DNA of 64,000 bases, taken from NCBI GenBank assembly GCA_035708205.1, contig DASSSY010000008.1, positions 88,314 through 152,313 on the forward strand, in the 5' to 3' direction. The notes under the pieces were generated by a model. That model was not told the DNA's origin. It ran no database searches and was given only the letters and a program-made list of their open reading frames with translations. This stretch comes from Edaphocola sp. (GTDB lineage: Bacteria > Bacteroidota > Bacteroidia > Chitinophagales > Chitinophagaceae). This document shows, piece after piece, positions 7,797 to 23,719 of the stretch (the stretch's first letter is position 1; each line of letters starts with the position of its first letter). Position numbers and translations under genes: made by a program.

Positions 7797-8540
7797 TCAG
7801 GCTAACATTTTTTCTAACTTCGTTTTCCACTTCTCCCAGTCTCGCATTTCTTTAGTTTGTAAATCGAAAAACTTCTGTGTATGGTCATGATGTATTAAAT
7901 GACAGAGCTCGTGTATAATAACATACTCAATGCAGCCCTTTGGGGCTTTAATCAGTTCAGGATTAATAATGATTTTGCCTTTAGCAGTGCAACTTCCCCA
8001 ACGGGTGGGCATTTTTCGAAAAGTTATGAGATATGAATTATGAGCTATGAGTTCAATATTGTGTTTAACCACAAACTTTTCAAGTAAGGGAGAGGCTATT
8101 TGTGGCAGGCGTTCCTTCGCTTTTTGCAAGTACCAATCTTCTACCAACCTTTTTGCCTTGCTTTTATCTTTTGTATAGACATTTAAAAAACCTCCGCTCA
8201 TTCTTACACAATCATTTCTAACCCCTAATTCATCATTCATAATTCTTAAACGGTATTGTCGACCCAAATAAAGATGGGTTTCCCCACTAACATATTTTCG
8301 CTTTGGCGTTTTTGGTTGAAAGGAAAGGAAAAAACTTTGCTGTTTGAGTATCCATGGCGCTTTCTTTTTTATTTTCTCTTTTACCTTCTCAATTGACGTG
8401 TCTGCCGGTGCTTTTACCAATACTTCCATTTCTGGGGTTACGGTAATGCCAAGAGATTTCCGGTTGGAATACACCAAACGAAAGTCAATAACCTTACTGC
8501 CAAATTGAATATTACTTAGTTCTTCTTTCCCTACATTCAT
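7797..8540 (-). CDS. YgjP-like / M48-family zinc metallohydrolase (DUF45), R-M associated
   Basis: HExxH motif in IIHELCHLIHHDH. It sits immediately downstream of hsdR, as is typical for this family. Confidence 0.8.
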   Translation of the reverse strand: MNVGKEELSNIQFGSKVIDFRLVYSNRKSLGITVTPEMEVLVKAPADTSIEKVKEKIKKKAPWILKQQSFFLSFQPKTPKRKYVSGETHLYLGRQYRLRIMNDELGVRNDCVRMSGGFLNVYTKDKSKAKRLVEDWYLQKAKERLPQIASPLLEKFVVKHNIELIAHNSYLITFRKMPTRWGSCTAKGKIIINPELIKAPKGCIEYVIIHELCHLIHHDHTQKFFDLQTKEMRDWEKWKTKLEKMLA

Positions 8541-8571
8541 AACTCATAATTCATCGTTCATAATTCATCGT

Positions 8572-11500
8572 TCAAATCTTATATCTCAATTTAGCTACCT
8601 CAATGCAGCCTTCTGCAATCTTGTCCATCTCATCGAATGACAGGTCAATATTGTATTTATCCCTCACTTCATCGATCAAATAGTCTCCTATTTCAATGAA
8701 TAACCTGCCGGTAATATTTGTCTTAATCTGCCAATCAACAATCGGTTTGCCATCATCCAATACGGAATGCTGAATAAAATCATCAATGTGCAAGGCCGTC
8801 TGCGTGGATATATTTTTGCAAGTTAACTTGTCTTGTATCTTTTCAGATAGAACCTCAACAGTCAATCCATAAAATGCCTTAGCGATATCTCTTTCCTTCA
8901 ACTGCTCCGGAATATCCTTGTCGGTATGAGCAAGAACATCATTCATAATTTCCTGAACCCTCTTCAGGTATTGTGCTTCATTGATGCGCTTAGCCTCATA
9001 ATCGGCAATAGCATCTTTCAACATTTGAGAGAACTTTTTATAAAATGCAGGGTCTTCATCCATTTTCTCCCGGATGTGCTTAGCTGTTCTGCTGGCAATT
9101 TTGTCAGCCTTGGCTGCTTTCCCCGTCGTGTTTTCCACTTCCTGCTGAAATTTGTCTTTGTCGAAAATGTTCACCAATTCGGTAATCGTCTCAATCTTTT
9201 CAGTAGTAATATGAGTATCAATCAGCTTTTGAATCTGACCTTCGTACTGTTTGTAATTTATGACATCGCTGTATCTTTCCACCACGGCCAGACGTAACTT
9301 CAAGAACATAGCCAGATCTTCCTTATATCGGTCAATGACCTTTTCCTCCACTTCATTGTGAAACTGGATGGAAGATAAAGCCAGTTTTAGACTTTTGGCG
9401 AAGTCGGCCAGTTTGTCATAAAACAAGACTCTCTTAGCTTCATCTTTCAATAACTGCTGATAGGCTTCTGCATCGCGTTTGTTGGTTATGGTCTTGAATA
9501 TATCCCATAAGTCGGAATGCTTTTGCGGAAGCTTCTTTATTTCCTCAGATATATTGGTAAGGGTACCGGCTAAGTCTTCTTCATCGAAATCTTCAAATGA
9601 GGAATACAACTTCAGCGCATCATCTAAATTTTCAATTACACCGTAGTAGTCAATAATATAACCAAAATCCTTGTCCGGATAAATGCGGTTAACTCTGGCT
9701 ATGGCTTGCAGGAGCTTGTGCCCGCGTAGGTTTCTGGTCAGATAAAGCACGGTATTTTTGGGCTCATCAAAACCCGTAAGCAATTTATCTACCACAATGA
9801 TAATTTCGGGGTCTCGTTGATTCTTGAAACGGTTAATCACATTCGTTTCATATTTTTTAGCATTGCCATGCTCCTCCATCATTCGCTGCCAAAACCGGTT
9901 GACCTTTTCCGATGATTTTTCATAGGCTGTTTCTTCTCCCTCCCGCTCGTCAATGGGAGAAATGAGTACTTCACTGGTTACAATACCAATTTCATCCAAA
10001 AACTCTTTATAGCGGATAGCATTTACCTTTTTATCACAAACTAACTGGGCTTTAAATGGCGTCCCCTGCCAATTACTGCGGAAGTGCCGGCTGATATCCC
10101 AGGCTATCGCATAGATTTTTTGTTCGGCGCCATTGAGTTGGTCTGCCCTTGCAAATTTCTTTTTCAAATCGGCCTTTTGGTAATCGGTCAACGGTTCGGA
10201 AACCATACCGAAAAAGGTGTCTATGGGGTTTTCATTGACCTTTTGACTGGCGACTCTTCCTTCGTACAACAATGGAACAACCGCCCTATCTCTTACGGCC
10301 TCATCAACGGTATAAGCATCAATAATGCCGCCGAATTTTGCTGCGGTACTCTTGTCTTTTTTGAAAAGGGGGGTTCCGGTCATGGCGATAAAACATGCGT
10401 TGGGCAAGGTTTTTTGCATGTCTATATTGAATATGCCATGTTGGGTTCTGTGGCCTTCATCCACCAGTACAAAAATATCAGGGCTTTCCAATGGTTTGTT
10501 GATTTTCTTTACCGCGGCCACAAACTTGTTGATGATTGTGGTAACTACGGCATCGCTTTTGCTTTCCAATAATTCCACCAACCGTTGGCCGGTCGTGGCA
10601 TTTTCTACAAACTTGCCGCATTTTCGGAAAGTCCCGGTGAGCTGGCGGTCTAAGTCAGTGCGATCGGTTACCAATATTATTTTCGGGTTCTGAATGCCTG
10701 GGTCCATTGCAATAGCCTGTGCCAACATGACCATAGTTAGTGATTTCCCGCTTCCTTGTGTATGCCAGATTACGCCACCTTTTCTTCTGCCATTTTCAAT
10801 ATGTTCAATTCGCTGCATTGTCTTTTTAATGGAAAAAAATTGCTGGTAACGAGTTACTTTCTTTTCTCCATTGTCGAACAGGATAAAATTGAAAATGATG
10901 TCCATTAACCTCTTGGGACGACACAATCCATATAAATACCTGTCTTGTTCCGTTGGTAAAATGGTCTCTTGTTTTAATGCATCGAAATATTGACGAACAT
11001 ATTTAAAGCGGTCTGCAAACAACTGATTTTTAATTCCATCAGACAGCGGTTCGTTTTTTATATCCTGTAATCTGGCCTTATAGGTTTGTTCCTCCTCAAC
11101 GGTTTCAAATTTTTCCTTCCATTTCGACCAGAATTCTTCCGGCGTGGCATTGGTTGCATAAAGGGCATCATTACAACTGATGGAAAGCAGTAATTGGGCA
11201 TATACATACAAGCTGCGAATGCCGTCTGCCTGCTGGCTCCTTAATTGCTGGCTGATTGCCTGCGAAAGCGGTTCTTTCCTATCCGGGCGCTTACATTCGA
11301 TGATGCAAAGCGGAATACCATTGACAAATAAGACCAGATCGGGCCTATAATGCTCTTTGCTGGTGCTCCGCATGACGCTAAACTCCTCGGTAACATGAAA
11401 AACATTATTGCTGATATTCTTCCAGTCAATGTATTGAAGCGTGAAACTTTTTTTATCACCGTCCACACTTTGCTCCAATGCCTGCCCCAGGGTAAGCAGG

Positions 11501-11799
11501 TTGTATGCTTTTTCACAGGCGGCAATGTAGCCTTCATTCATGGGCAGGTTTTTGAGCGCTTGTATGCCCCGCTCAATATTTTCATCTGTGAAAATGCTCG
11601 TCCGGGTAGCACTTACCCGAATACTGTTGATTTCCTTCAATTGCCTTCTCAGGATATCTTCCAGCAATACATTAGATGTTTTGCCACCTCTTTGCCGCTC
11701 AGCTTCTGCCGGACTAAGGTAACTGTAACCCAATTTCAGCAGCATTTGCAGCGCCGGAATCTGGCTGATATGATCTTCTTTGAAACTTGGTATATTCAT
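8572..11799 (-). CDS. hsdR: Type I restriction endonuclease subunit R
   Basis: 1075 aa. N-terminal nuclease-type region (MNIPSFKEDHISQIPALQML... CIIECKRP) and SF2 helicase motifs TQGSGKS and VLVDEGHR. Confidence 0.95.
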   Translation of the reverse strand: MNIPSFKEDHISQIPALQMLLKLGYSYLSPAEAERQRGGKTSNVLLEDILRRQLKEINSIRVSATRTSIFTDENIERGIQALKNLPMNEGYIAACEKAYNLLTLGQALEQSVDGDKKSFTLQYIDWKNISNNVFHVTEEFSVMRSTSKEHYRPDLVLFVNGIPLCIIECKRPDRKEPLSQAISQQLRSQQADGIRSLYVYAQLLLSISCNDALYATNATPEEFWSKWKEKFETVEEEQTYKARLQDIKNEPLSDGIKNQLFADRFKYVRQYFDALKQETILPTEQDRYLYGLCRPKRLMDIIFNFILFDNGEKKVTRYQQFFSIKKTMQRIEHIENGRRKGGVIWHTQGSGKSLTMVMLAQAIAMDPGIQNPKIILVTDRTDLDRQLTGTFRKCGKFVENATTGQRLVELLESKSDAVVTTIINKFVAAVKKINKPLESPDIFVLVDEGHRTQHGIFNIDMQKTLPNACFIAMTGTPLFKKDKSTAAKFGGIIDAYTVDEAVRDRAVVPLLYEGRVASQKVNENPIDTFFGMVSEPLTDYQKADLKKKFARADQLNGAEQKIYAIAWDISRHFRSNWQGTPFKAQLVCDKKVNAIRYKEFLDEIGIVTSEVLISPIDEREGEETAYEKSSEKVNRFWQRMMEEHGNAKKYETNVINRFKNQRDPEIIIVVDKLLTGFDEPKNTVLYLTRNLRGHKLLQAIARVNRIYPDKDFGYIIDYYGVIENLDDALKLYSSFEDFDEEDLAGTLTNISEEIKKLPQKHSDLWDIFKTITNKRDAEAYQQLLKDEAKRVLFYDKLADFAKSLKLALSSIQFHNEVEEKVIDRYKEDLAMFLKLRLAVVERYSDVINYKQYEGQIQKLIDTHITTEKIETITELVNIFDKDKFQQEVENTTGKAAKADKIASRTAKHIREKMDEDPAFYKKFSQMLKDAIADYEAKRINEAQYLKRVQEIMNDVLAHTDKDIPEQLKERDIAKAFYGLTVEVLSEKIQDKLTCKNISTQTALHIDDFIQHSVLDDGKPIVDWQIKTNITGRLFIEIGDYLIDEVRDKYNIDLSFDEMDKIAEGCIEVAKLRYKI

Positions 11800-11888
11800 T
11801 TTCCCTGTATCCTTATTGTCTTCTAATAATTTTCTTCACTCCAATTAAAATGAACCGCTCACATACTTATGATTATCAGTATATTGTA

Positions 11889-11924
11889 AATTCTTCTCTT
11901 AATTCTTCTCTTAATTCTTCTCTT
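11889..11924. repeat. 12-bp x3 perfect tandem repeat (aattcttctctt; minus strand AAGAGAAGAATT)
   Basis: Units at 11889-11900, 11901-11912 and 11913-11924. It lies in the 139-nt gap between the AlbA_2-like gene and hsdR. Confidence 0.9.
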
Positions 11925-11938
11925 AAATACTTGCCCAA

Positions 11939-13600
11939 TCACTTTTTAAGAGACCATTTGGGTTTACTATAAGTACCTGTATTTTCAATTCTTTCTTTCA
12001 TCCTTAATTCTGATAGTAGGTTCCCAATCTTGTTTTTCTTCTGCTTATCATCCATCCAGTCTGGTAGCTTCTTCCACAACAATTCGTCTATGTCACTCCT
12101 TTCCAGTATCTTATGTTCTCTGATTGCTTTTTCAATTAAATCCAGATAATAGCTCTTATCAAAAGCCTTGTTTTTAGAATAAGCGGCCTTTTGACCTGTT
12201 TTTGCGGCTACTTTTATTCCTATGTAATAGTTTGGCTTCCTCCCCTCAATCAGGTTTTTGTTCCGTAAGTGCTTCTCTTCAAAAGCCGATAAAGTTTGCT
12301 TCTTCTGAACTTTGTCCAGCATCATAATTTCTTCCAAAGTCAGGTCTTTATTCTGAGCAAGTAATCGGGCATAATTCATGTCCAGGATTTTTCCCGAAAT
12401 GGACACTTTTACTCTATCGTTAGACAAGTCGTAATCAGGTAAAGGAAAAAATCGCGCTCGCTGAAAATTAAATATTTTCTTAATGCCCCCGCCGGCAGTA
12501 TCTACCATTTTAAGATTAAACATAGCGGTTGCCAGGAAACGGTTTCGGTAATATTCTTCGGGTGCATCTTCTATAACCACCTTTTCTACGTTTCCGGGAA
12601 TAAAGGAACCCTGATTGGTGAATACCAGTTGATCGGGCATCTCTATGACGTTTATTCTCGCGTTTTTTGTATAATCCTGATGAGCAATACAGTTATTGAT
12701 GGCTTCACGGATGGAGAACGGCTCATACTTTGATACTTCTGTAGGAAAAATAGTTCCTTCCTGCATATAGCGATACTTGATATTCCGAACCTTTGCATAT
12801 ACCTTTTCTACGGAAAGAATGAAAGGCAACCCAAAAATCTCATAATCTATATCATTGTTCTTTTCATCAACCAACTTCCAACGAATTTTGATATCAGCAG
12901 GACTCAGAAAATGCTCGGATTCATCTTTTCCTAAAAGGATGAGTGCCGTTCGGGTAATTTTTCCTTTGATGGTTACTTTTGATTTATTGAGAAAAGCAAT
13001 ATCATCCCAGGCATCCACTTCTTGCGCTTTATCTGGAAATTTATTTTTAAAGTTTTTTCTGGCCAGCGCAATGGCATCTTCGTCCAAATCTTCCACTGAA
13101 GCACCGGAGACAATGGCCGCACTCCAGTCTTCTTTAATTGCCTGAGCACGAATACGTTCAATTTTTTCAAGATTCAGCGGGGCTAATTCTTCTCCGTCAC
13201 GGGCGTAATAATGCCCATCAAATGCAATTGGAATCCCCCGCGGAGCCGCCGGAATCTGAAACATAATAACACGGCCATCGGTGGTATTGAGCTCGTGAAT
13301 CTCAATAAAAGAAATCCGATTGGTAGTTTTATTGGCAATCTCACCTTTTAAGCTGTCAAGATCCTTTCGTAAAGTTCTAAAATTACTTCCAATAATAGAA
13401 TGATCTTTATCTCTTATACCAAAAACCAGCCAGCTATAAGGCTTGCCTTTTAAATTGGCCTCATTACTTAAGGCAGAAAAGTATTTCCCCAGTTTGGTAA
13501 AGTCATAACCTTTTTTAGCTTCCTTAAATTCAACAATTTCATTCTCGGCCGTGAGATCGAGGAGGCTTTGAAGGATATGTCTTAATTCTGTCATAGGCAT
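11939..13600 (-). CDS. AlbA_2 (Schlafen-like) DNA-binding domain plus HATPase_c_4-type ATPase plus C-terminal wHTH protein ('RecG-like' transcriptional regulator family)
   Basis: The N-terminus ENEIVEFKEAKKGYDFTKLGKYFSALSNEANLKGKPYSWLVFGI is typical of AlbA_2. The central region has NNCIAHQDY and MVDTAGGGIKKIF. Confidence 0.7.
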   Translation of the reverse strand: MPMTELRHILQSLLDLTAENEIVEFKEAKKGYDFTKLGKYFSALSNEANLKGKPYSWLVFGIRDKDHSIIGSNFRTLRKDLDSLKGEIANKTTNRISFIEIHELNTTDGRVIMFQIPAAPRGIPIAFDGHYYARDGEELAPLNLEKIERIRAQAIKEDWSAAIVSGASVEDLDEDAIALARKNFKNKFPDKAQEVDAWDDIAFLNKSKVTIKGKITRTALILLGKDESEHFLSPADIKIRWKLVDEKNNDIDYEIFGLPFILSVEKVYAKVRNIKYRYMQEGTIFPTEVSKYEPFSIREAINNCIAHQDYTKNARINVIEMPDQLVFTNQGSFIPGNVEKVVIEDAPEEYYRNRFLATAMFNLKMVDTAGGGIKKIFNFQRARFFPLPDYDLSNDRVKVSISGKILDMNYARLLAQNKDLTLEEIMMLDKVQKKQTLSAFEEKHLRNKNLIEGRKPNYYIGIKVAAKTGQKAAYSKNKAFDKSYYLDLIEKAIREHKILERSDIDELLWKKLPDWMDDKQKKNKIGNLLSELRMKERIENTGTYSKPKWSLKK

Positions 13601-13610
13601 ACGTAAAATC

Positions 13611-14384
13611 TTATGAGTTTATCAATTCAGCAATTTCATTGGCTATTTCTTCAACGGTAAAATTTGCCGTATTACGGGCAAGCTTATCAGCTATTGAAGG
13701 GGAAAAATCAACTACTTCCTGTTTTGTTATATTGTGCCAAATTGGGAGTAATACTTGTTCCCCACTTACAACCTTTGTAATGATTCCATCCAATTCGTAA
13801 TTTGTCCAACCTTTCTTAATAAAATTCCTTGATAATACAACTATTCCAAATTTACTTTTGGCAAGTCCTTTGTCTATCTTCTGCCTTAAACTGTCACCAA
13901 TTTTCAATTCAAACTCGTCATACCAAACGGATAGCCCTGCGTTTCTAAGTGCGATAGCTAATGGCCGAACTATTTCATCCTTATCTTCGGAGGCATGGGA
14001 AATAAATACATCATGCTCTCTGTAAGCCCCATTATCAAACCCAAATGGAGATTGCGCTCCACCCTGAACCAATGAAGGCACCGACGATAATGGAGCATCT
14101 TGATAAACTGGTAAAGCGGAAGGTAATATCTGTACATTAGCATTTGTGGAGCCTCTCAATCCTTGCATATCAACCGTTACATAGTAGTGCCCCGAACTTG
14201 GAACCCCTAATATAACTGGTGATTTTGTTACTAATCCGCCTACATAACGATGACTCCTTCCCGATTTATAATTATTGTAATTGGAGTTATCCATTAAACG
14301 AACATTCGCAGCATTTCCAGTTAATGTTACCTTAACTCGTTCACCTCTTTTAAGCTGTTTTAAGTCCCAAACTAAATATTCCAT
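13611..14384 (-). CDS. DUF1883-TIR domain protein
   Basis: N-terminal ~95 aa (LKRGERVKVTLTGNAANVRLMDNSNYNNYKSGRSHRYVGG) is DUF1883-like. C-terminal TIR has HDVFISHASEDKD and a candidate catalytic Glu in WTNYELDG. Confidence 0.75.
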   Translation of the reverse strand: MEYLVWDLKQLKRGERVKVTLTGNAANVRLMDNSNYNNYKSGRSHRYVGGLVTKSPVILGVPSSGHYYVTVDMQGLRGSTNANVQILPSALPVYQDAPLSSVPSLVQGGAQSPFGFDNGAYREHDVFISHASEDKDEIVRPLAIALRNAGLSVWYDEFELKIGDSLRQKIDKGLAKSKFGIVVLSRNFIKKGWTNYELDGIITKVVSGEQVLLPIWHNITKQEVVDFSPSIADKLARNTANFTVEEIANEIAELINS

Positions 14385-14406
14385 ATTTTTTATTTTACTT
14401 CTTTTT

Positions 14407-15273
14407 TCAACTTACAGGAAATTTATCTCCAAACAACTGCTTCCAGATATTCAGGGCATTTTTATTACTATTAGTTTGAATTGCTAACTCCGCATCTTTA
14501 AGCATTTGCCGGAACGTTTCTTTGAATTTAGTTCGTTGATCAAAATCCAATTTTAATAAATTATCTTGTGGTGTTGCCGGATTAATAACCTCAGTATCTC
14601 CGTTCCAAAACCCTCCAAAAGTTGATTCAATGGCTTTGGCTGTTTCAAAAAATGCTTTATCATCTCGGCTGTTTGGTTTGTAATTATTAGTAACCCAAAT
14701 CGTGAAAGAGATTCCATTTGGCATTTTTCTGCTCCGCTGATATGCCCATGCTTTAAAGTATTTCACCAGCCGTATTAGCTGCCCATTTTTATCTTTTCTC
14801 TTCTCAAACCAATCACACAGTTCTTTTGGATCACTTTGTAGCCAACCTTTCTTCGTAGCTAAAAAGGGATGTTTGTCATGGGGTGTTTTATAATACACAG
14901 GTAAGTCAATATCATAATCGCCTTGGTAAATGACTCGGATACATTTCTCTCTGTGCTCAACACCTCCTACAGTACAGCCATTTACAGCATTGTGAACATT
15001 TTTTTGTAAACTTAATGATTCAATTTTGGGTTTCTCCAGAAAATAAATTCCTAAGTCAACATCATAAGTGCCATTCTTTTTTACTACCATAGTTCCCATT
15101 TTGTAAGAACCCTGTATATAAAATCTTGGTGTAAGGAATTTTGCATGTGATTTAAAATGTTCACGAATACGATTCTCTAATGCTTTTCGTGAAGCAATCA
15201 GCTTTTTCTTTTTGGCAGGACTAAGCGAAATAGCCCGTTCAAATTGCAAAAATTGCTTATAAGTGTTTCCCAT
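14407..15273 (-). CDS. CD-NTase-like (cGAS/DncV-like) nucleotidyltransferase, short form (288 aa)
   Basis: Pol-beta NTase triad layout: IQGSYKMGT, YDVDLGIYF and DYDIDLPVYY, followed by WLQSDPKELCDWF and LIRLVKYFKAW. Confidence 0.75.
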   Translation of the reverse strand: MGNTYKQFLQFERAISLSPAKKKKLIASRKALENRIREHFKSHAKFLTPRFYIQGSYKMGTMVVKKNGTYDVDLGIYFLEKPKIESLSLQKNVHNAVNGCTVGGVEHREKCIRVIYQGDYDIDLPVYYKTPHDKHPFLATKKGWLQSDPKELCDWFEKRKDKNGQLIRLVKYFKAWAYQRSRKMPNGISFTIWVTNNYKPNSRDDKAFFETAKAIESTFGGFWNGDTEVINPATPQDNLLKLDFDQRTKFKETFRQMLKDAELAIQTNSNKNALNIWKQLFGDKFPVS

Positions 15274-15284
15274 TGCGCTATGAA

Positions 15285-16349
15285 TTACTTAGCATCAAAG
15301 AATTTACTGCCACTCCCAAAATTCTTAATAATATCGGTAGCATTTTTTTGAAATTCTATATTGGCTTTCTCAGCGAGTTTTTTAAGTTTTCCTTTATTTG
15401 TTTCGTCCATTTCAATAGGGCAACTTTCATCTAATTGTGTATCAATTCTTATGTAGTGAAAGTTATCCGGCTCTTGTTTGTCAATACCATTTTTTAAGAT
15501 GCTAATTAAGTTTTGCGCTTGTTGAGTTTGACCTTGCATAAAAACTTCAATCAGCCGTTTCTTTCCATCTCCAAGCATCCAGTAATAAATGCCATATTTC
15601 ACGCGATGTTTTTTCTTCTTGTCTATTCCGGCGTCACAAAAGCGTTGATGTCCCGTTCCGACGGATAAAACAGATAAGTCTTTTAGCTCAAGGTTGAAAG
15701 CTTTTTTTGCTTCGATAATTCCATTTAACGTTGGGTTATTTGCAAATACACCTCCGTCCACTTTATTTTGGAAAGGTTTTTCTAATCCATTCAAATCAAT
15801 GTAAGAAGCTGAATATGGGTCAAAATAAGTGGGGGCAGCTGAAGTCGCCAATGCGGCTTGGTATGCCGGAATATGAAAGTCTCTGACAAAGGCTGGATGA
15901 TATTTACTCTTTAGAACCGAAGGCCTTCCTTCCATTAAATCATAAATGGGAATGGCTACATGTGTTTTACAATGTTTTAATCTTGGGTCTTCTCCATCTT
16001 CTCCATTGTGATAAGCCTTGTATTTGTCCCGGATTAACTTTTCTAAAGCATCACGATTGTAAGCAGCATATTTAAATCGTTTCAGAAAGCCCTTTTTATT
16101 ACCAAAAATAGTCTCAGCATTATTCAAATAGAGTTCGTAAATCTCTTTTGCAGGAATACCCAAGGCCAAAGCAATTGCCATAATTCCGCCTGTGGAAGTA
16201 CCACAGATTAAATCGAAGTTCTGATAAACCTGCCATTTCTCAATGCCTTTGGCTTTGAGTTCTGCTTCATAGTTGGCTAAAAACATTGCTGGGAAAATGC
16301 CTCTGATTCCGCCACCATCTATGGATAATATTTTGAAGGGTTCTGCCAT
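15285..16349 (-). CDS. Patatin-like phospholipase (CapV-like)
   Basis: Oxyanion-hole motif DGGGIRG, nucleophile elbow GTSTG, and catalytic Asp in VDGGVFANNP. 354 aa. Confidence 0.85.
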   Translation of the reverse strand: MAEPFKILSIDGGGIRGIFPAMFLANYEAELKAKGIEKWQVYQNFDLICGTSTGGIMAIALALGIPAKEIYELYLNNAETIFGNKKGFLKRFKYAAYNRDALEKLIRDKYKAYHNGEDGEDPRLKHCKTHVAIPIYDLMEGRPSVLKSKYHPAFVRDFHIPAYQAALATSAAPTYFDPYSASYIDLNGLEKPFQNKVDGGVFANNPTLNGIIEAKKAFNLELKDLSVLSVGTGHQRFCDAGIDKKKKHRVKYGIYYWMLGDGKKRLIEVFMQGQTQQAQNLISILKNGIDKQEPDNFHYIRIDTQLDESCPIEMDETNKGKLKKLAEKANIEFQKNATDIIKNFGSGSKFFDAK

Positions 16350-16350
16350 A

Positions 16351-17607
16351 TTATTTGATTCTGATTTTACCAGTTAATAATTGCTGCATCAATCCTTTCT
16401 TCTGCATCCTTAGTTTCTCCGCTTTGACCTTGAGCAGGTTAATTTCTTTATCTGCTGCTCGCAAGATTTGGACAATCGCTGTTTGCTCCTTAATTGTCGG
16501 GATAAAAAACTTCATTGAACAAAGCCCATCAAAAGATAAGCTATCTCGTACACTACCTTGAACGAACATCGGGATATGGCCGTAAAACCATTGTGTTTTT
16601 AAGTGGAAGTAAAGAAAATCCGCCAGCAGACGTTTTTCGTCCGTTGCAAATATAATATACATCGGGCTTAAAATCCCAGCTTCCAAATTTCTTAGCAAAT
16701 CGAGCGAGCCAACATTAACCCTGGATGGATTGTAGGCAAATTGACCTTTCTTGACTATCTTATAATTTGAAGTATTCTCACTTGCAACGGTTCTATCAAA
16801 TTGGTCCGTTTGGTTAATAAATCCTCTAGAATTGGTTACAGATAAAATGTTTAAAACCTTTGCCTCTTTATTTCTTTCTGAAATTTCCCTTATAAACTGG
16901 CCAACGGCTTTTAGCTTAACTTCCCCACTAAACCCGTTCGACCGTATTTTCCCACTTAACAATTGCTGCATTAGCCATTTTTTGCGAAGTTCTTTTTGGG
17001 CTATGAGTTTATCGGTGGCCGCAATGACAGCATCGCATGATTTTAATATTCTTGCAATTGATTGTTGTTCAGGAATAGTTGGGAGTGGAATTTTAACTTG
17101 AGAAAGGTCTCCTTGTCCAATATTTGTTCTAACCGCACCTTGACCATTTCGTATAATTTGATTCCTTACAATACTTGAACGAAGACAATATCTTTTATAA
17201 AAATCATCTATTGATTTGTTCAATGGTCGCCCTCTTATCACAAAGCCTCCAAATACAACTTCATCTGTTCCATTATAAACGGCAGATAAACCAATTTCTT
17301 CAACCGTTTCCGATGTCCTGTTGAAAAGCACATCTCCATCTTTTACTAAGTATAGTTCTTTCTGCTCATCGGATATTTGGACTGTTCCGGGAATCAAGTC
17401 AGGTGTGATATAGTCATTATAAATAACTTCCATAACGTTAATAAACTTAACACCACTCCCATAACTTTCTTTTCCAGCATTGATACCGTTTTTAAAATCA
17501 AACAGTTTACCTAATTTAATTACATCCCACTCACTTGGAATTACGGCATCAAGGGAAGGCCTTTTTAAATTGCTGTTTTTATTTTTTACTTCTGGTTGCT
17601 TCATCAT
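16351..17607 (-). CDS. hsdS: Type I R-M specificity subunit, full length with two TRDs
   Basis: Two TRD halves, each ending in the conserved PLPTIPEQQSIARIL / IPTIKEQTAIVQIL motif plus a coiled-coil ending LMQQLL(S/T)GKIR. Confidence 0.9.
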   Translation of the reverse strand: MMKQPEVKNKNSNLKRPSLDAVIPSEWDVIKLGKLFDFKNGINAGKESYGSGVKFINVMEVIYNDYITPDLIPGTVQISDEQKELYLVKDGDVLFNRTSETVEEIGLSAVYNGTDEVVFGGFVIRGRPLNKSIDDFYKRYCLRSSIVRNQIIRNGQGAVRTNIGQGDLSQVKIPLPTIPEQQSIARILKSCDAVIAATDKLIAQKELRKKWLMQQLLSGKIRSNGFSGEVKLKAVGQFIREISERNKEAKVLNILSVTNSRGFINQTDQFDRTVASENTSNYKIVKKGQFAYNPSRVNVGSLDLLRNLEAGILSPMYIIFATDEKRLLADFLYFHLKTQWFYGHIPMFVQGSVRDSLSFDGLCSMKFFIPTIKEQTAIVQILRAADKEINLLKVKAEKLRMQKKGLMQQLLTGKIRIK

Positions 17608-18064
17608 TAGTTTCTTTTAGTTTGTTAGCTTGCTTTTCCGCTTCGGTTTCGTTATGAATACCGCCACCACGCCAAGTGCCGGTACATAGCCAAAGTTCAT
17701 AATGACACAGCCATTCGCAGGCCCAAGGAATTAATGTTCGAATATAAAGCATCCCAACATTCCACTCCACACGATTAGGATAATACAAGCACAATCGCTG
17801 GTCAGGTGTCGAATAGACGTGCGGTAAAGTCTTCTTCCCTTCAGCAAGAGCTAATGGTTTCGGTTCTATTACATATACCCTAATGCCGTTATTTCTAATG
17901 TATGTCAATTTTAATTTGTAAGTATTGCTTAGCGGTGATGGTGTAACTGAACCTGTCCAAGTGAGAGATTCTTCGCGGAAGCGTCTTATTGTACAATCAG
18001 GAAATATCTTTTTTAATGTTCCTTCCTGCACAATCAGTGATATCCTATTGTTCTTCTTTACCAT
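17579..18064 (-). CDS. Stand-alone UBC/E2-like protein (candidate catalytic Cys92)
   Basis: YKLKLTYIRNNGIRVYVIEPKPL...LPHVYSTPDQRLCLYYPNRVEW...TLIPWACEWL mirrors the E2 core pattern (beta-meander, His 10 residues before Cys-Leu, downstream Trp and helix). It overlaps the NTase gene by 20 nt and hsdS by 29 nt. The call is by eye only. Confidence 0.55.
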   Translation of the reverse strand: MVKKNNRISLIVQEGTLKKIFPDCTIRRFREESLTWTGSVTPSPLSNTYKLKLTYIRNNGIRVYVIEPKPLALAEGKKTLPHVYSTPDQRLCLYYPNRVEWNVGMLYIRTLIPWACEWLCHYELWLCTGTWRGGGIHNETEAEKQANKLKETNDEATRSKK

Positions 18065-19280
18065 AGAAGTTATGATTTTTCAAAGTTGTGCCAACGCTAC
18101 CTAACATTCCGGAAGATGCCGCCATTTTCAGTTCTCCGTTTTCCCGAAGCAATCTGGTTTTTTCGCTATAATTAGAGAATGCTTTTGCAACCACATTTTC
18201 TCCAAATGGTTTTGATAATGCTTCCTTAATAAAATGCAAGCCTCGTTGTCTTATGGCGTACTGTAGATCAAGTTTAACCTGCTTAATCCACTTATAGAAA
18301 TTTTCTTGCTTTTGCGGGTTCTCCGGCCATTTATCAGCAAAGTTCTCGGTATCATTTACCGGATTACCAATCCATTTGATATTTTTTCTATATTTCTCTG
18401 AATATCGTTCTTCTATGAAAGCTGACATTCTTTCAACTACCTTCAACAAGGCTTCTATAATATCAGTTTCCTTATGATAGGCTCTGGCAGCAAGCGTGGT
18501 AATAATGATGGAAATAGGTTTATCTTCATCCCCGTTGAACATCATATCTCTATGTCGTTTCAAAATTTGAACGACACGTTGTAGAGGTAATTTTCTTGTC
18601 TGGTATTTAGGAACCGGCTGTACCGCTTCGCTCATCAGGCGGAGTTCACTTGTAAGCAATTTTGCTCTGTTTTCGAACCAGATACCATAGCCGAAGGGGT
18701 TACTCTTAGGCCACCATTCCGGTTGGGTTTCCATCCTATAATTTATTTCGAGTTTATCAGTGATGCGAATGGCAAGTGTTTCAAAATCTACGGTGGAAGC
18801 TGAAAGACTTTTTTCTAACAGAACCCGGTATCCACTACTTACAATAGCGGGTAAAATGTCCAGATGGAATTTGGCTGAATCTGCATACTGTAATGTCCAA
18901 CATCTTCTTCCGTCTGGTATTTTTAGCAGACGTTTTAAAGTTCCATGGTTAACCAGTCGCTGACCAACTATTTGTTTCAGATTATATTGCGTCCATTCAG
19001 GCCTTTTACCTTCAAGCCTACAAACTAAGTCAATATCAAGTTCATCATCATCATGTATAGGTTTAATCATTGTGCCCAGCATAAATGAACCTTGTGGCAA
19101 TATTTCCGGGTTATACGGAGAAAGATTCGATTCTGGAGCGGAAAGCCATTCCCCCACAAACTCATAACTTTTAACCGCTGCGTCATGCTGTTCTTTGGTT
19201 ATATCAAGCGACTTTCCTAATTCTTCCAGTATATCACTAAATTGTTTTTTTTGTTCTGCTGTAAGCATATTAAATAGCAT
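18045..19280 (-). CDS. SMODS / CD-NTase-like nucleotidyltransferase (411 aa)
   Basis: QGSFMLGT, ELDIDLVC and FHLDILPAI form the catalytic triad layout. Downstream are WPKSNPFGYGIWF and LQRVVQILKRHRD helices. The start overlaps the hsdM stop by 11 nt. Confidence 0.75.
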   Translation of the reverse strand: MLFNMLTAEQKKQFSDILEELGKSLDITKEQHDAAVKSYEFVGEWLSAPESNLSPYNPEILPQGSFMLGTMIKPIHDDDELDIDLVCRLEGKRPEWTQYNLKQIVGQRLVNHGTLKRLLKIPDGRRCWTLQYADSAKFHLDILPAIVSSGYRVLLEKSLSASTVDFETLAIRITDKLEINYRMETQPEWWPKSNPFGYGIWFENRAKLLTSELRLMSEAVQPVPKYQTRKLPLQRVVQILKRHRDMMFNGDEDKPISIIITTLAARAYHKETDIIEALLKVVERMSAFIEERYSEKYRKNIKWIGNPVNDTENFADKWPENPQKQENFYKWIKQVKLDLQYAIRQRGLHFIKEALSKPFGENVVAKAFSNYSEKTRLLRENGELKMAASSGMLGSVGTTLKNHNFYGKEEQ

Positions 19281-20829
19281 TTAATTGTTTAAGGTATTTA
19301 TCCATTTCCGCTTGTACGGTTTTCAATTCGTCTTCTAATTGCTCTATCTCATTTTGCACCGCAGCAATATCCACTTCTGGTTCTTCTTCAAAAGTATCCA
19401 CATAGCGGGGTATATTCAGGTTAAAGTCGTTTTCCTCTATTTCTTCAAAAGTGGCTATATAACTATATTTATCTTCGACCACACCCGGTTGTAGTTTGCC
19501 GGCGGTAAAACCCCGGTAAGTATTTACAATATGGTCAATATCCTCTGGGCGCAGCTTATTTTGATTTTTGGCGCTTTCATAGTGCTTGCTGGCATCAATG
19601 AACAATACATTATTGCTGCTTTTCACCTTATTAAAGATGAGAATGGCCGCCGGAATACCGGTACCAAAAAACAGGTTGGCCGGTAAGCTAATAACGGCTT
19701 CCAACAGATTTTCTTCAATGGTTTTTTTACGAATCTTCCCTTCGCTGGCTCCACGAAATAACACACCATGAGGTACGACCACGCCCGCTTTTCCGTTCTC
19801 ATTCAACGTTTCTATCATGTGGGTAATGAATGCCCAGTCGCCTTTGCTCTTGGGCGGCACACCCCGCCAAAAGCGGTTGTACTTATCCGTTTCCGGGTCA
19901 TAGCTAACGGTAGTTTTTTCGCCGTCTTTATCTTCCACCTTTCCCCATTTGTCCAAAGAAAAGGGCGGATTGGCTACAACGGTGTCAAATTTCATCAAAG
20001 CATCGCCTTCTTTAAGCTTGGGGTTACGAATAGTATCGCCCCAGCGAATGGTGGCGTTGTCAAAGCCATGCAGGAACATATTCATCACCGCCAGCGCCCA
20101 GGTGCTGCCATTGGCTTCCTGTCCATAGAGCGAAAAATTATCGGAACCTACTTCTTCACCTGCTTTTATCAGCAATGAAGCAGAGCCGCAGGTAGGGTCG
20201 GCAATGCGAGACCCCGGCTTTGATTTAGTAAGTTTGGCAATGAGCGTAGATACTTCCCTCGGGGTGAAAAACTCCCCCGCCTTTTTCCCGGCATCGCTGG
20301 CAAAGTTTTCAATCAGGAACATGTACGCACCACCAATAATATCCACGCCATCTAAATGAGAGGGCCTTAAATCAAGATCTTCTTTATTAAAATCCAGCAA
20401 CAGGTTCTTCAATCGGATATTTTTATCCTTCGTTTCCCCCAACTTGCTGCTGTTAAAGTCGATATTCTGGAATATACCGGCGCCATCTTCACTGTATAAT
20501 TTTTCGCGATTGGCTTCTTCCAAATCCGCCAAGGCAATATTAATCAGTTCGCCGATATTGGCCTCATTACGATGGTCATATAAGTATCTAAAGTGACTTT
20601 GTTCAGGCACAATAAAGCGTTCGTGCTGCATGGCACGCTTGGCGCGTTCTGTATCCCCATTGTATTTTTTCAAGTAAGCTTCATACTTATCGTCATACAC
20701 ATCGCTGAGGTATTTGATGAACATCATGGTCAGCACATAATCTTTGTAAACACTTGGATCAATGCTTCCACGAAACGTATCGCAGGCTTTCCAGACGGCA
20801 TCATTGATTTTTTTTTGGGTTATCTTCAT
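19270..20829 (-). CDS. hsdM: Type I R-M DNA methyltransferase subunit M (N6-adenine)
   Basis: HsdM N-terminal domain, SAM motif DPTCGSASLL, and catalytic VVANPPFS. Confidence 0.95.
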   Translation of the reverse strand: MKITQKKINDAVWKACDTFRGSIDPSVYKDYVLTMMFIKYLSDVYDDKYEAYLKKYNGDTERAKRAMQHERFIVPEQSHFRYLYDHRNEANIGELINIALADLEEANREKLYSEDGAGIFQNIDFNSSKLGETKDKNIRLKNLLLDFNKEDLDLRPSHLDGVDIIGGAYMFLIENFASDAGKKAGEFFTPREVSTLIAKLTKSKPGSRIADPTCGSASLLIKAGEEVGSDNFSLYGQEANGSTWALAVMNMFLHGFDNATIRWGDTIRNPKLKEGDALMKFDTVVANPPFSLDKWGKVEDKDGEKTTVSYDPETDKYNRFWRGVPPKSKGDWAFITHMIETLNENGKAGVVVPHGVLFRGASEGKIRKKTIEENLLEAVISLPANLFFGTGIPAAILIFNKVKSSNNVLFIDASKHYESAKNQNKLRPEDIDHIVNTYRGFTAGKLQPGVVEDKYSYIATFEEIEENDFNLNIPRYVDTFEEEPEVDIAAVQNEIEQLEDELKTVQAEMDKYLKQLNAI

Positions 20830-20848
20830 TAGATATGAGTTATGAGAT

Positions 20849-21211
20849 TTAAGATTTGAGATTTTTTTGTTTGATCGTTAAGATAGTACTTCGAAGCATT
20901 TTCAAAATTTGAGTAGCCTCGTCAGATAGCTTTTCGAATGCACCCTTGTTAATATATTCGGTAAAATAAAGTAATTCCAACCAGTAAAGAGCCTCATCGC
21001 ATTCTTTTTGAGCGATACCAAGTTTATGCACAAAATCATTTTTGCTTTCAGCGTTTTTTGCTTCACGAATATTCGCACCGACCGAAGTACCTGAACGAAG
21101 TAGTTGTTTGCTCATTACAAATTCTTTCTTTTCTTCAGCCAGTGTTTTATACGCCTTCACCACTGAAATAGCAAAAGCAAAGGATTTTTCTTTTAGTATT
21201 GATTGGCTCAT
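20849..21211 (-). CDS. Four-helix-bundle protein (23S rRNA-intervening-sequence protein family)
   Basis: 120 aa with KSFAFAISVVKAYK...QLLRSGTSVGANIREA...SKNDFVHKLGIAQKECDEALYWLELL, typical of TIGR02436-type proteins. Confidence 0.75.
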   Translation of the reverse strand: MSQSILKEKSFAFAISVVKAYKTLAEEKKEFVMSKQLLRSGTSVGANIREAKNAESKNDFVHKLGIAQKECDEALYWLELLYFTEYINKGAFEKLSDEATQILKMLRSTILTIKQKNLKS

Positions 21212-21214
21212 ATC

Positions 21215-21781
21215 TTATCTCTCATAGTTTATAGCTTGAATAATTTGTTGTTGAATTTGTTGCTCCCGAAGTGAATCAATTTTCTGCTTCAGTACTCTTT
21301 CCCTATTCCGGAGTTTGGTAATTCGGAGGATTTTATTTTGTATTTCAATGTTGGGAATGGTAATCTCCAAGCCTTCTAAAACCGTTTTTGAGATAGAAGC
21401 CATCGAAGTTCCGATTGCCTGCTCTTTTAAAATTGTCCGAACAGCATGGTTATTAAGAAACCAAACCAAATATTCCGGCAGCACATTTTCGTCTTTAATC
21501 TTGATGACAAAAAAAGAGGTTGAAGCCACGGCGGGACGGTTATGACTTTCATAAATTGCCGCAAAATTCTTCGTGCCTTTAGCAGCAAAGAGCACATCGC
21601 CCGGCTTTAAAAGATGCCTTTCGGGAATGTCATCTGCAAATAAATCAGGAAAAAGCGTGGTTTGCAACTGACCATAATCGTCAAAATGCTTGACTTGTAG
21701 GTATAGTACATCACCTCTTCCCATTGGTTTTCCAAACAGCCCGGTTCGAATTTTAGCAATATCTTTGATGAGTTTTTCCAA
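21215..21781 (-). CDS. hsdS: Half-size type I specificity subunit (single TRD)
   Basis: 188 aa with one TRD, an ITIPNIEIQNKI motif and a coiled-coil tail. It is the first gene of the operon. Confidence 0.7.
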   Translation of the reverse strand: MEKLIKDIAKIRTGLFGKPMGRGDVLYLQVKHFDDYGQLQTTLFPDLFADDIPERHLLKPGDVLFAAKGTKNFAAIYESHNRPAVASTSFFVIKIKDENVLPEYLVWFLNNHAVRTILKEQAIGTSMASISKTVLEGLEITIPNIEIQNKILRITKLRNRERVLKQKIDSLREQQIQQQIIQAINYER

Positions 21782-21805
21782 ATTTATTCTTTTGTATTGA
21801 AGCTA

Positions 21806-21813
21806 CAAAAATA
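21806..21813 (-). promoter_or_regulatory. Bacteroidota -7 promoter motif TATTTTTG (TAnnTTTG) for the R-M/defence operon
   Basis: The minus strand reads TATTTTTGTAG, 25 nt upstream of the half-hsdS ATG. An identical 11-mer is repeated at 21867-21877. Confidence 0.45.
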
Positions 21814-22096
21814 GATAATGTTTTATAATCAACCAAATTTTTATAAAAAAATCCTAAGTAATTTTTCTACAAAAATACTTCTGCACCAAAAAAGGCCGAG
21901 TTCCGAGTGCCTTTTGTATCTCCGCCGGCGACTTTGGAGCTGGTGTGAAAGACGTTTGTCATACAAACGTACATCTTGTTGCCTGCGCTCCGAGGCAGGG
22001 TACGCTTAAAGTACCTGAGTTGGAGTCTTTCTTCAAATAAAGATATTTGGCCGCAAATTTGCTTTTAAAGTCCATTGTGGAAAGCCGGAAGGAAAA

Positions 22097-22320
22097 CGTT
22101 CCATTTCGTTCCGTTTTTCGTTCCATTTTTAGGAATAAACTATTTGAAAATAAACGGGTTATCCCTGTTTTTCGTTCCGTTCCGTTTTTGAACTGGGGCG
22201 TTCCATTTTCGTTCCATTTTACCGGAGAACGTTCCATTTTTTAAAACATTTACGTTGATAATCAAATAATTATAGACGCCTTGCGTTTCATTTCCGCATA
22301 AAACAAAATGGAACGGAACG
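22097..22320. repeat. Iteron-like cluster of at least 8 copies of CGTTCC(A/G)TTTT
   Basis: Direct copies at 22097, 22107, 22119, 22173 (doubled), 22199, 22210 and 22230. One inverted copy at 22305-22320. Confidence 0.85.
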
Positions 22321-22465
22321 ATGACTGAATTCAGGTGGCTGTGATGCAATATTTTCAATATTATTTGAAGGCTTTTGCGATGATTTATCTATTCGCCCCG
22401 AACTTTTGGGGAAATTGGCCAACGCCACTGAAATTCTCGCCTTTCCCATCCGGGAAAATGCCACA

Positions 22466-23719
22466 TCAAAGATGTAATTTTTTCTTCCTCTGATTCAATC
22501 TTCTTTCAACACTCGACATATCCGCGCCGATTTTTTCCTCATCTACTTCCGCATAAATTTGCGTTGTCGTTATTTTCGTATGTCCAAGCATCTTGGAAAC
22601 CGTTTCGATGGGAACACCGTTTTTCAGGGTTACCGCAGTGGCAAAAGTATGCCGGGCAAGATGGAAGTTCATCTCCTTGGTAATGCCGCAAACGGCACCG
22701 ATAATTTTTAAATTCCGGTTGACTTCCTGATTGGATATTGGTGGGAAAATGGTTCCGTTTTGTAATGCCCGCGGGTCATTTTTGTATTTATCCATGATAA
22801 CAATCGCAGCATTTAGAACAGGAACAGCAGACAATTCTTCCGACTTTTTCCGGTAAGTATCTATCCATAATTTTCCATCGTTGGCGACCAAAAGGTCATC
22901 TTTGGTGAGCTTGGCAACATCCGCATAGGCAAGGCCGGTGTAACAGGAAAATAAAAATAAATCTTGTACCAAAATCAATTTCGGATTACTGAATTGCTTT
23001 TCTTCTATGCTGATTAACTCCGGAATTTGTAATTTTTTTCTTTTGACTTTCTTTTTTTTAATCTGGTAATTTTCAAACGGATTATCTTTTATCCAGCCCA
23101 ATTTCTTCGACCATTTGACCATTTTCTTTAATCGTTCCAGATGTTTGGCAACGCCGTTACCTTTACAAACATCCCATTTTTTGATGGGGTAATGCCGTAT
23201 ATAATGCTCCAGCTCGGTAATAAATTGGTAATCCAGCTCGGAAAGAAAAATATCTTCCCGTTTAAAATTAACCTTCAGAAAACGCCGAATGTATTCCTCG
23301 GTGGTGACATAATTTTTCATTGTTCCGGGCGCCAATATATCGCGGTTAATGTCAAGATGGTATTTAAGCAATTGAAGAAGCGTAGGCGCAGATCGGTCTT
23401 GACCTAAAAATTTTTCTTTCAAAATTTCGGCGGATACCGGTTTTTGATGCAATACCATGTCATCATAAAAGTGATGAATCTTTAGTTTAACTTTTTCAAG
23501 GTAGAGATTAAGCTGTTTGATTTCCGGTGTTGCACCTTTAATTTTATCATCTTTCGCCAGCCAGATATTTACGGGAATTCTTCGTTTCAAGGAAATGTCG
23601 GCATTCTTTCTGTTGACGGAAATGAGCAGATAAAGGGGGGCCGTTCCTTCTTTGGTTTTGTACTTCTTTACAAAAAATGATACACCGAGTGTTGGCGTTT
23701 GTTGAGTCATGACATCCAA
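22466..23719 (-). CDS. Tyrosine site-specific integrase (Bacteroidota arm-binding type)
   Basis: N-terminal arm-DNA-binding-like segment (GVSFFVKKYKTKEGTAPLYLLISVNRK), HLARHTFAT, and LGHTKITTTQIYAEV with the catalytic Tyr. Confidence 0.9.
   Translation of the reverse strand: MDVMTQQTPTLGVSFFVKKYKTKEGTAPLYLLISVNRKNADISLKRRIPVNIWLAKDDKIKGATPEIKQLNLYLEKVKLKIHHFYDDMVLHQKPVSAEILKEKFLGQDRSAPTLLQLLKYHLDINRDILAPGTMKNYVTTEEYIRRFLKVNFKREDIFLSELDYQFITELEHYIRHYPIKKWDVCKGNGVAKHLERLKKMVKWSKKLGWIKDNPFENYQIKKKKVKRKKLQIPELISIEEKQFSNPKLILVQDLFLFSCYTGLAYADVAKLTKDDLLVANDGKLWIDTYRKKSEELSAVPVLNAAIVIMDKYKNDPRALQNGTIFPPISNQEVNRNLKIIGAVCGITKEMNFHLARHTFATAVTLKNGVPIETVSKMLGHTKITTTQIYAEVDEEKIGADMSSVERRLNQRKKKLHL

Follow-up and report, generated by a model that had tools for sequence, protein, structure and literature searches.

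Can a single E2-like protein serve two cyclases that are encoded in the same operon? The question is raised by a 64,000-nucleotide stretch of Edaphocola sp. DNA (contig DASSSY010000008.1 of assembly GCA_035708205.1, positions 88,314 to 152,313; hereafter the window), in which the genes of a cyclic oligonucleotide-based antiphage signalling system (CBASS) are interspersed, one by one, among those of a type I restriction-modification (R-M) operon (8572-21781). The operon encodes two CD-NTases (nucleotidyltransferases similar to cGAS and DncV) of 411 and 288 aa, one E2 and a patatin phospholipase. Both cyclases end in an aromatic residue and a glycine followed by a short tail. A sequence-only reading of the window had taken this as one shared feature and had proposed that the E2 primes both cyclases, linking their two cassettes across hsdS and giving the long cyclase and its E2 access to the patatin and to a TIR protein as effectors. 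The analysis described here points to a different arrangement, which we consider probable: a composite CBASS within a type I R-M operon, in which the E2 serves the long cyclase alone, the patatin is the effector and the short cyclase provides a second input.

C-termini of the two cyclases

The genes of interest are encoded on the minus strand, as are the window features described below, and they overlap or are separated by gaps of at most 22 nt as far as a 553-aa gene. Their order is integrase, hsdS fragment, a 23S-IVP-like gene, hsdM, the 411-aa cyclase, the E2, a full hsdS, the patatin, the 288-aa cyclase, a DUF1883-TIR gene, the gene of a 553-aa HATPase_c_4 protein, and hsdR. In the 2.74-Mb genome (8 contigs) the two cyclases, the E2 and the patatin are each single-copy, and no further cyclase or E2 is present, so that the E2 gene at 17579-18064 is indeed the only one.

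The open reading frame (ORF) of the long cyclase (18045-19280) ends KNHNFYG-KEEQ* (codons AAT CAT AAC TTC TAT GGT AAA GAA GAA CAA TAG), and that of the short cyclase (14407-15273) ends WKQLFG-DKFPVS* (codons TTG TTT GGA GAT AAA TTT CCT GTA AGT TGA). Both C-termini had been quoted exactly, and both proteins are CD-NTases with intact GS, DxD and D catalytic motifs, as had been supposed. In the long cyclase, these are QGS(63-65), DIDLV(82-86, with DID at 82-84) and HLD(139-141), the columns of which are invariant in the alignment of its family (alignment A1); in the short cyclase, they are QGS(54-56), DVD(71-73) and D123. The possibility that the short cyclase is a degraded remnant was rejected, since GS, DxD and the third Asp are invariant in its family.

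The two cyclases are distant paralogues, with 18% identity over the match that hhalign finds between their families (probability 94.8%). In this match, WKQLFGDKF(277-285) of the short cyclase is paired with LSKPFGENV(355-363) of the long cyclase. The short-cyclase F281-G282 thus corresponds to an internal F359-G360 (18201..18206), which lies about 47 residues before G407, and not to Y406-G407, and this pairing contradicts the view that the aromatic-Gly ends with their short tails are one homologous feature. The internal motif is itself well conserved in the long-cyclase family (G360 invariant, F359 in at least 90%; alignment A1), it is framed by helices 348-359 and 361-380 in the AlphaFold2 (AF2) model, and about 50 residues follow it in the hhalign comparison.

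The same motif is internal in the solved relatives of the short cyclase, at 280-289 of BfCdnB (341 aa), where it reads WKKHLGNRFH, and at 305-313 of DwCdnB (334 aa), where it reads DHFGSEFPV. BfCdnB (PDB 7LJO, which is CdnB04; PMC10442399) matches the short cyclase with E=2.8e-52 and 36% identity, and Foldseek places the short-cyclase model on 290 ordered residues of BfCdnB with a template-modelling (TM) score of 0.93 in both directions, followed by DwCdnB. By this superposition, the ordered core of BfCdnB does not include its C-terminal addition of about 50 residues. The short cyclase (14407..15273; PADLOC cyclase PDLC00774, E=6.5e-99) is described here as clade-B-like, in the sense that its nearest relatives in sequence and structure are CdnB enzymes.

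Family-wide conservation and predicted order lead to the same view of the motif. When it was parsed in 115 short-cyclase homologues, G was present in 110/115, K or R at +2 in 105/115 and F at +3 in 114/115; the F285 position is better conserved than the G282 position. The AF2 model has a mean predicted local distance difference test (pLDDT) value of 93, its helix 270-281 ends at F281, and residues 281-288 still average 92. The protein stops six residues past the core Gly, with the last helix of the fold just before it. Judged by homology and by the model, F281-G282-D-K-F285-P-V-S (14410..14433) is the last element of the CD-NTase fold and not a removable tail. The aromatic-Gly end of the short cyclase is fully accounted for by a protein that stops just past its core motif, and the resemblance to the long cyclase is a cheap coincidence: an aromatic-Gly at most six residues from the C-terminus occurs in 3.8% of the 1617 ORFs of at least 200 aa in the genome. 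Conservation of the glycine, which had been suggested as a check, is thus found in both families, in the long one as that of a terminal residue (120/120) and in the short one as that of a core residue.

The long cyclase and its E2

The long cyclase (18045..19280) is a CdnG-type CD-NTase, the primary cyclase of the operon (PADLOC cyclase PDLC00780, E=9e-134; Pfam DncV-like_NTFase and SMODS), with PDB matches to 9woo, deposited as a cyclic GMP-AMP synthase (E=1.8e-60), and to SmCdnG of Serratia marcescens (8hsb, E=1.6e-34). Its true start is probably M5 (ATG 19266-19268), giving 407 aa, because its homologues begin MLT.EQK and the longer start would overlap the stop of hsdM (19270-20829). The 120 listed homologues (59-96% identical) without exception have a terminal G with 0-5 residues after it, and G407 is invariant in alignment A1. 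The tails themselves are diverse: 57 distinct ones occur, of which KEEQ is the commonest (13/120), and the residue before the terminal G is H in 59, Y in 29, F in 27, N in 4 and D in 1. In the AF2 model, confidence is good up to the end of helix 361-380, and residues 394-411 have pLDDT values below 50. A three-stranded sheet, expected in the C-terminal region, was not reproduced in the AF2 monomer, in which residues 381-411 are of low confidence.

The E2 (17579..18064; 161 aa; PADLOC E2 PDLC00863, E=1.4e-51) is a stand-alone protein whose homologues are annotated as PF26395, E2-CBASS. It matches SmE2 (8hsb_B) with E=5.5e-18, and its PHVY...RLCLY and GGGIH segments align with the regions of SmE2 that contain His87/Cys101 and His152, respectively. 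Its residues H82, catalytic C92 and H137 are followed by the C-terminal lysines K144, K148 and K150. An E1 or JAB domain was absent from all ORFs of the operon in a Pfam scan.

The mechanism of the Serratia pair has been described in detail. G406 of SmCdnG is conserved, and the residue that follows is cleaved off by SmE2 itself, which has a Cys/His protease activity (Yan et al., Xiao et al.; 10.1101/2022.05.25.493364, PMC12948482). G406 is then bound to C101 or K159 of the E2, and H87 is also a key residue (10.1101/2022.05.25.493364, PMC12948482). CdnG residues 352-398, a helix and a three-stranded sheet, recruit SmE2, and interface mutants such as R360D abolish the CdnG-E2 linkage (PMC12948482). 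In addition, SmE2 transfers CdnG to lysines and builds chains (10.1101/2022.05.25.493364).

The operon contains a cyclase with intact GS/[DE]xD/D motifs, a stand-alone E2, a longer cyclase with a terminal Gly, and an effector; by these sequence features, the 411-aa cyclase and the E2 are a standard and known E2-CBASS pair. Because the mechanism of E2-CBASS has been published and every tested hallmark of the family is present, the terminal Gly of the 411-aa cyclase is, by analogy, almost certainly the residue that is handled by the adjacent E2. Thus, Y406-G407 and the KEEQ tail (18048..18065) form a ubiquitin-like C-terminus and a putative site of E2 processing and attachment, as suggested by the homologue alignment, the AF2 model and the analogy to SmCdnG. 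It should be noted that E2-linked cyclases with a terminal Gly and a tail that is trimmed have already been published; this is textbook E2-CBASS and not new.

The genes of the long cyclase and the E2 overlap at precisely this site. The ATG of the E2 gene takes its A and T from the end of the Y406 codon and its G from the start of the G407 codon, and the entire KEEQ tail is encoded in the overlap with E2 codons 2-6 (MVKKNN). The overlap with the E2 gene may partly set the identity of the tail.

Tailed and tail-less relatives of the short cyclase

To place the short cyclase among its relatives, 118 clade-B-like cyclases were collected from the fetched loci (loci and proteins carry our running numbers, L and P) and aligned. 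The core Gly is kept by all 34 whose next gene encodes an E2, with F at +3 in 33 and Y in one, and all 34 continue for 52-59 residues after it and end in a second G plus at most five residues (for example ...HRFYGE and ...KNYGGQK). Tail-less are 50 of the clade-B-like cyclases, the one of the window among them, which have 1-11 residues after the core Gly. The motif [FLI]G.[KR]F is also kept by tail-less cyclases in Cdn-AGS_C/patatin cassettes that lack an E2 (L114, L129, L132, L133, L136, L054, L076 and the context of P0142), in which the long cyclase bears an AGS-C domain in place of the E2 partner. The short cyclase of the window has no C-terminal docking extension, its Gly lies in a segment predicted to be well ordered, and its motif is not tied to the presence of an E2, all of which sets it apart from an E2 substrate.

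A quick maximum-likelihood tree of the core columns places the window protein in a clade of 49 rows (Shimodaira-Hasegawa-like approximate likelihood ratio test, SH-aLRT, 97), of which 46 are tail-less. Monophyly of the tail-less state was considered and holds only partly, since the label needs four changes on this tree, at least two of which are forced; several long-branch rows make finer statements from it unsafe.

About half of the tail-less homologues are somewhat longer (310-320 aa) and have an N-terminal hydrophobic helix (MLPILLRVLGVAVGGLIL...), with a coding sequence that overlaps the 3' end of the patatin gene (P0156, P0159-P0162 and others; L028:10010-10969, L119, L121-L123 and L076). 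This suggests a membrane-anchored CD-NTase, as predicted from the helix. The tail-less cyclase of the window does not have an N-terminal hydrophobic helix.

Gene neighbourhoods

The neighbourhoods of related cyclases were annotated by tblastn with the window proteins and a few Pfam and PADLOC scans. The CdnG loci examined were 80 of more than 573 matches, and those 61 with at least 5.5 kb of downstream sequence were counted. An E2 is present in 56 of the 61, and a downstream patatin in 25, of which 15 are free of R-M genes; in these 15, the order CdnG-E2-patatin is contiguous. In the window, a full-length type I HsdS (16351..17607; two stretches of Pfam Methylase_S; PADLOC Specificity_I, E=1.7e-85) lies between the E2 and the CapV-like patatin phospholipase (15285..16349; Pfam Patatin, E=3e-25; PADLOC CBASS phospholipase effector, E=2.5e-96). 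Because CdnG, E2 and patatin are contiguous in relatives, we infer that the patatin, the probable shared effector, serves the CdnG-E2 pair and that hsdS has been inserted between the pair and its effector. A CBASS effector other than the patatin was not found in the operon with Pfam and PADLOC. The sequence-only reading was therefore right that the cassettes are linked across hsdS, but the link would run via the patatin and not via priming by the E2; likewise, access of the long cyclase and its E2 to an effector holds for the patatin, their natural effector, but is not supported for the TIR protein, which has no recognised cyclic-nucleotide sensor domain and occurs in 0/61 loci.

A second cyclase is present in 12 of the 61 CdnG loci, and all 12 of these have a patatin. 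Seen from the tail-less short cyclase, a patatin is always its neighbour, and a long cyclase is near it in 18/18 close-relative loci with enough upstream sequence (the informative loci). Its partners are CdnG and E2 in eight, CdnG-AGS-C without an E2 in five, and a long CdnB with an E2 in five. In terms of gene content, the tail-less cyclase is thus the habitual second cyclase beside the patatin of CdnG-E2. The patatin and the short cyclase resemble a two-gene type I CBASS, but the long cyclase is also present in each of the 18.

In several relatives (L114:5409-6953, L054:10001-11542, L076:9974-11533, L129, L132, L133 and L136), a CdnG-like cyclase of about 510 aa that is fused to AGS-C stands in for CdnG and E2, placed as they are with respect to hsdS, the patatin and the tail-less cyclase. 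Going by gene content and position, the regulatory module seems to have been swapped, AGS-C for E2.

In some R-M-embedded CdnG-E2 loci, an HNH-SAVED (Cap5-like) effector follows hsdS, besides the patatin in L004 (12867-13997) and instead of it in L009 (12927-14054).

Interleaving with R-M genes is not peculiar to the window. Of the 61 CdnG loci, 18 are embedded after hsdM, and the order hsdS fragment, hsdM, CdnG, E2, hsdS, patatin, cyclase, ..., hsdR recurs across several Bacteroidota families (L002, L004, L007, L028, L036, L047, L079, L119-L123 and others). A different E2-CBASS, patatin-CdnB-E2, was observed between hsdS and hsdR in L105, L113, L120, L138-L143, L150 and L173.

Proposed mechanism and alternatives

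In the composite CBASS proposed here, and by analogy with Serratia, the E2 would dock on the C-terminal region of the long cyclase (residues ~361-400), its Cys92/His82 centre would cut KEEQ off after G407, and it would then carry G407 as a thioester or isopeptide on C92 or on a C-terminal lysine. This linkage would license or boost nucleotide synthesis on infection, and the nucleotide would activate the patatin, leading to destruction of the membrane. The tail-less cyclase, which has no handle for the E2, would work without it and, as read from gene order only, would be a second input to the same patatin. To judge from its C-terminus, the short cyclase is most likely E2-independent, and both cyclases probably share one membrane-destroying lipase.

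Several points weigh against this explanation. The E2 co-occurs with the short cyclase in 13 of the 18 informative loci, and this distribution alone is compatible with an E2 link. Extensions are present in three of the 49 rows of the mostly tail-less clade, which implies more than one change of tail state. The rule that a tail-less cyclase is never alone is drawn from 18 loci with annotation at the tblastn level, and the sharing of one lipase is read from gene order. Lastly, the AF2 monomer models are compatible with recognition of the short cyclase in trans.

Instead of a composite, two independent systems might lie side by side, that is, a type I CBASS made of the patatin and the 288-aa cyclase next to a CdnG-E2 pair that is an orphan or uses another effector. 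A patatin followed by a cyclase is the classical capV-dncV order, hsdS separates the two pairs, and R-M-embedded CdnG-E2 loci without a patatin do exist (L009, L034, L062 and L072, with HNH-SAVED instead in L009). Nevertheless, this is unlikely, as CdnG-E2-patatin is contiguous in the 15 loci that have neither R-M genes nor a second cyclase, the tail-less cyclase and patatin form a stand-alone pair in 0/18 informative loci, and the operon offers no other CBASS effector.

Still less probable is that the short cyclase is regulated by CdnG-E2 in another way, as a lysine acceptor, as the partner in a hetero-complex, or as a relay that is activated by the product of the first cyclase. The strict co-occurrence of the short cyclase with a long regulated cyclase, either E2-linked or AGS-C-fused, would agree with such a role, as would the ability of SmE2 to move CdnG to lysines and to build chains. 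However, the partner module is interchangeable between E2 and AGS-C, which argues against an E2-specific link, although not against a relay.

The least credible alternative is the original one, that the one E2 acts on both cyclases, processing and conjugating them at (F/Y)G, and so couples the two cassettes: both proteins do end in aromatic-Gly plus a short tail, the genome has one E2, and an E2 accompanies the short cyclase in the 13 loci mentioned, but the Gly of the short cyclase is homologous to G360 of the long cyclase, it is a conserved core residue followed by conserved and ordered residues, the extension of 52-59 residues found in 34/34 E2-adjacent relatives is missing and with it a docking region such as CdnG 352-398, which SmE2 requires and in which R360D abolishes linkage, and the motif is retained in cassettes without an E2.

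Comparison with known systems

Among the known systems closest to the composite CBASS of the window is the E2-CBASS of Serratia marcescens (SmCdnG-SmE2, type II short; PDB 8HSB/8YJY/9KKB), with which it shares a clade-G-type cyclase of about 407 aa whose additional C-terminal region ends in a conserved Gly with a short tail, a stand-alone E2 of 161-162 aa with a His/Cys pair and a GGG(K/I)H motif, overlapping genes, and the lack of an E1 and a JAB protein. In contrast to Serratia, where the tail is one residue and the effector is 2TM-SAVED, the tail in the window has four residues (KEEQ) and the effector is a patatin lipase, which is split from the pair by hsdS; in addition, there is a second, tail-less cyclase, and type I R-M genes run through the whole system.

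The 288-aa cyclase shares its fold and the core motif [FL]G.[KR]F with BfCdnB (7LJO) and with the cyclases of Bacteroidota patatin-CdnB-E2 operons, but in BfCdnB (341 aa) and in 34/34 E2-adjacent relatives a further 50-59 residues or so lead to a second, terminal Gly. In type II CBASS with Cap2 (E1-E2) and Cap3 (JAB), a ubiquitin-like use of the cyclase C-terminal Gly likewise primes signalling (Ledvina et al. / Jenson et al. 2023; PMC10097602); the window has neither an E1 nor a JAB protein, and in the E2-only class trimming of the tail falls to the E2, which needs a dedicated docking region on the cyclase. As in type I CBASS (capV and CD-NTase), the patatin directly precedes a minimal CD-NTase without an appendage, but the tail-less cyclase was always accompanied by a longer regulated cyclase in the loci examined. 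TgvAB in Vibrio cholerae VPI-2 (PMC11411939) provides a precedent for unrelated defence genes inserted among the hsd genes of one operon; unlike that case, the window has as its cargo a CBASS into which hsdS in turn is inserted, and many Bacteroidota families share this arrangement.

In the literature, coverage of which was incomplete, no account was found of one patatin flanked by a regulated and a tail-less cyclase, nor of a CBASS split by hsdS, and no work on operons with two CD-NTases was found, the sole match to 'two CD-NTases' being concerned with in-vitro assays. One may tentatively suggest, as a possibility that we rate below an even chance, that these loci represent a recurrent and apparently undescribed two-cyclase CBASS architecture of Bacteroidota, interleaved with R-M genes, in which a regulated long cyclase and a minimal tail-less cyclase flank one patatin, for which the tail-less one would serve as a dedicated second input or an amplifier. 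The long cyclase of such an architecture would be an E2-controlled CdnG, an AGS-C-fused CdnG or an E2-controlled CdnB, the tail-less cyclase would often be N-terminally membrane-anchored, and a third cyclase (GGDEF or PycC-like) would frequently be added.

Irrespective of this suggestion, the context is worth keeping in view: an E2-CBASS is split by hsdS and combined with a second cyclase from a clade without a regulatory handle, which was unseen without a regulated partner. If both cyclases do converge on one patatin, this would be a simple natural system in which to study how a CBASS integrates several infection cues, and it could reveal the reason that ubiquitin-like priming is needed by some cyclases but not by others closely related to them.

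The variable slot and flanking genes

The gene downstream of the short cyclase encodes a DUF1883-TIR protein (13611..14384; Pfam DUF1883 and TIR_2; PADLOC PDC-S66, E=7.7e-72), which is probably a separate single-gene module in a variable slot. It was found in none of the 61 related CdnG loci and is present only in the window and in loci with a 95% identical short cyclase (L195-L197); a SAVED, STING or CNBD-type sensor domain was not detected in it with Pfam and PADLOC. The TIR protein was rejected as a CBASS effector, since it has no recognised sensor domain, is absent from the 61 related loci, and differs from the cGMP-activated PucTIR, which has a CNBD and not a DUF1883 domain.

Promoter-like sites in the region 8000-22500 were not above the level in shuffled sequences, in a search with the sigma-70 consensus, which is ill-suited to Bacteroidota. 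Terminators in this region were rarer than in shuffles, which supports only the absence of an obvious internal terminator.

In most relatives, the slot after the tail-less cyclase is occupied by a 253-aa GGDEF protein (Pfam E=4e-29) with a hydrophobic N-terminus, which represents a third nucleotide cyclase in the operon (L079:15490-16251, L002, L004, L028, L047, L054, L113 and L116-L133); a GGDEF gene is present in 7 of the 61 CdnG loci. Other occupants are a PycC-like cyclase with PycTM in some relatives and a TIR-like protein in L008. In the near-identical metagenomic loci L195-L197, the place of the 553-aa HATPase_c_4 protein is taken by a SoFic-like Fic protein, and a 105-aa ORF lies between hsdS and the patatin.

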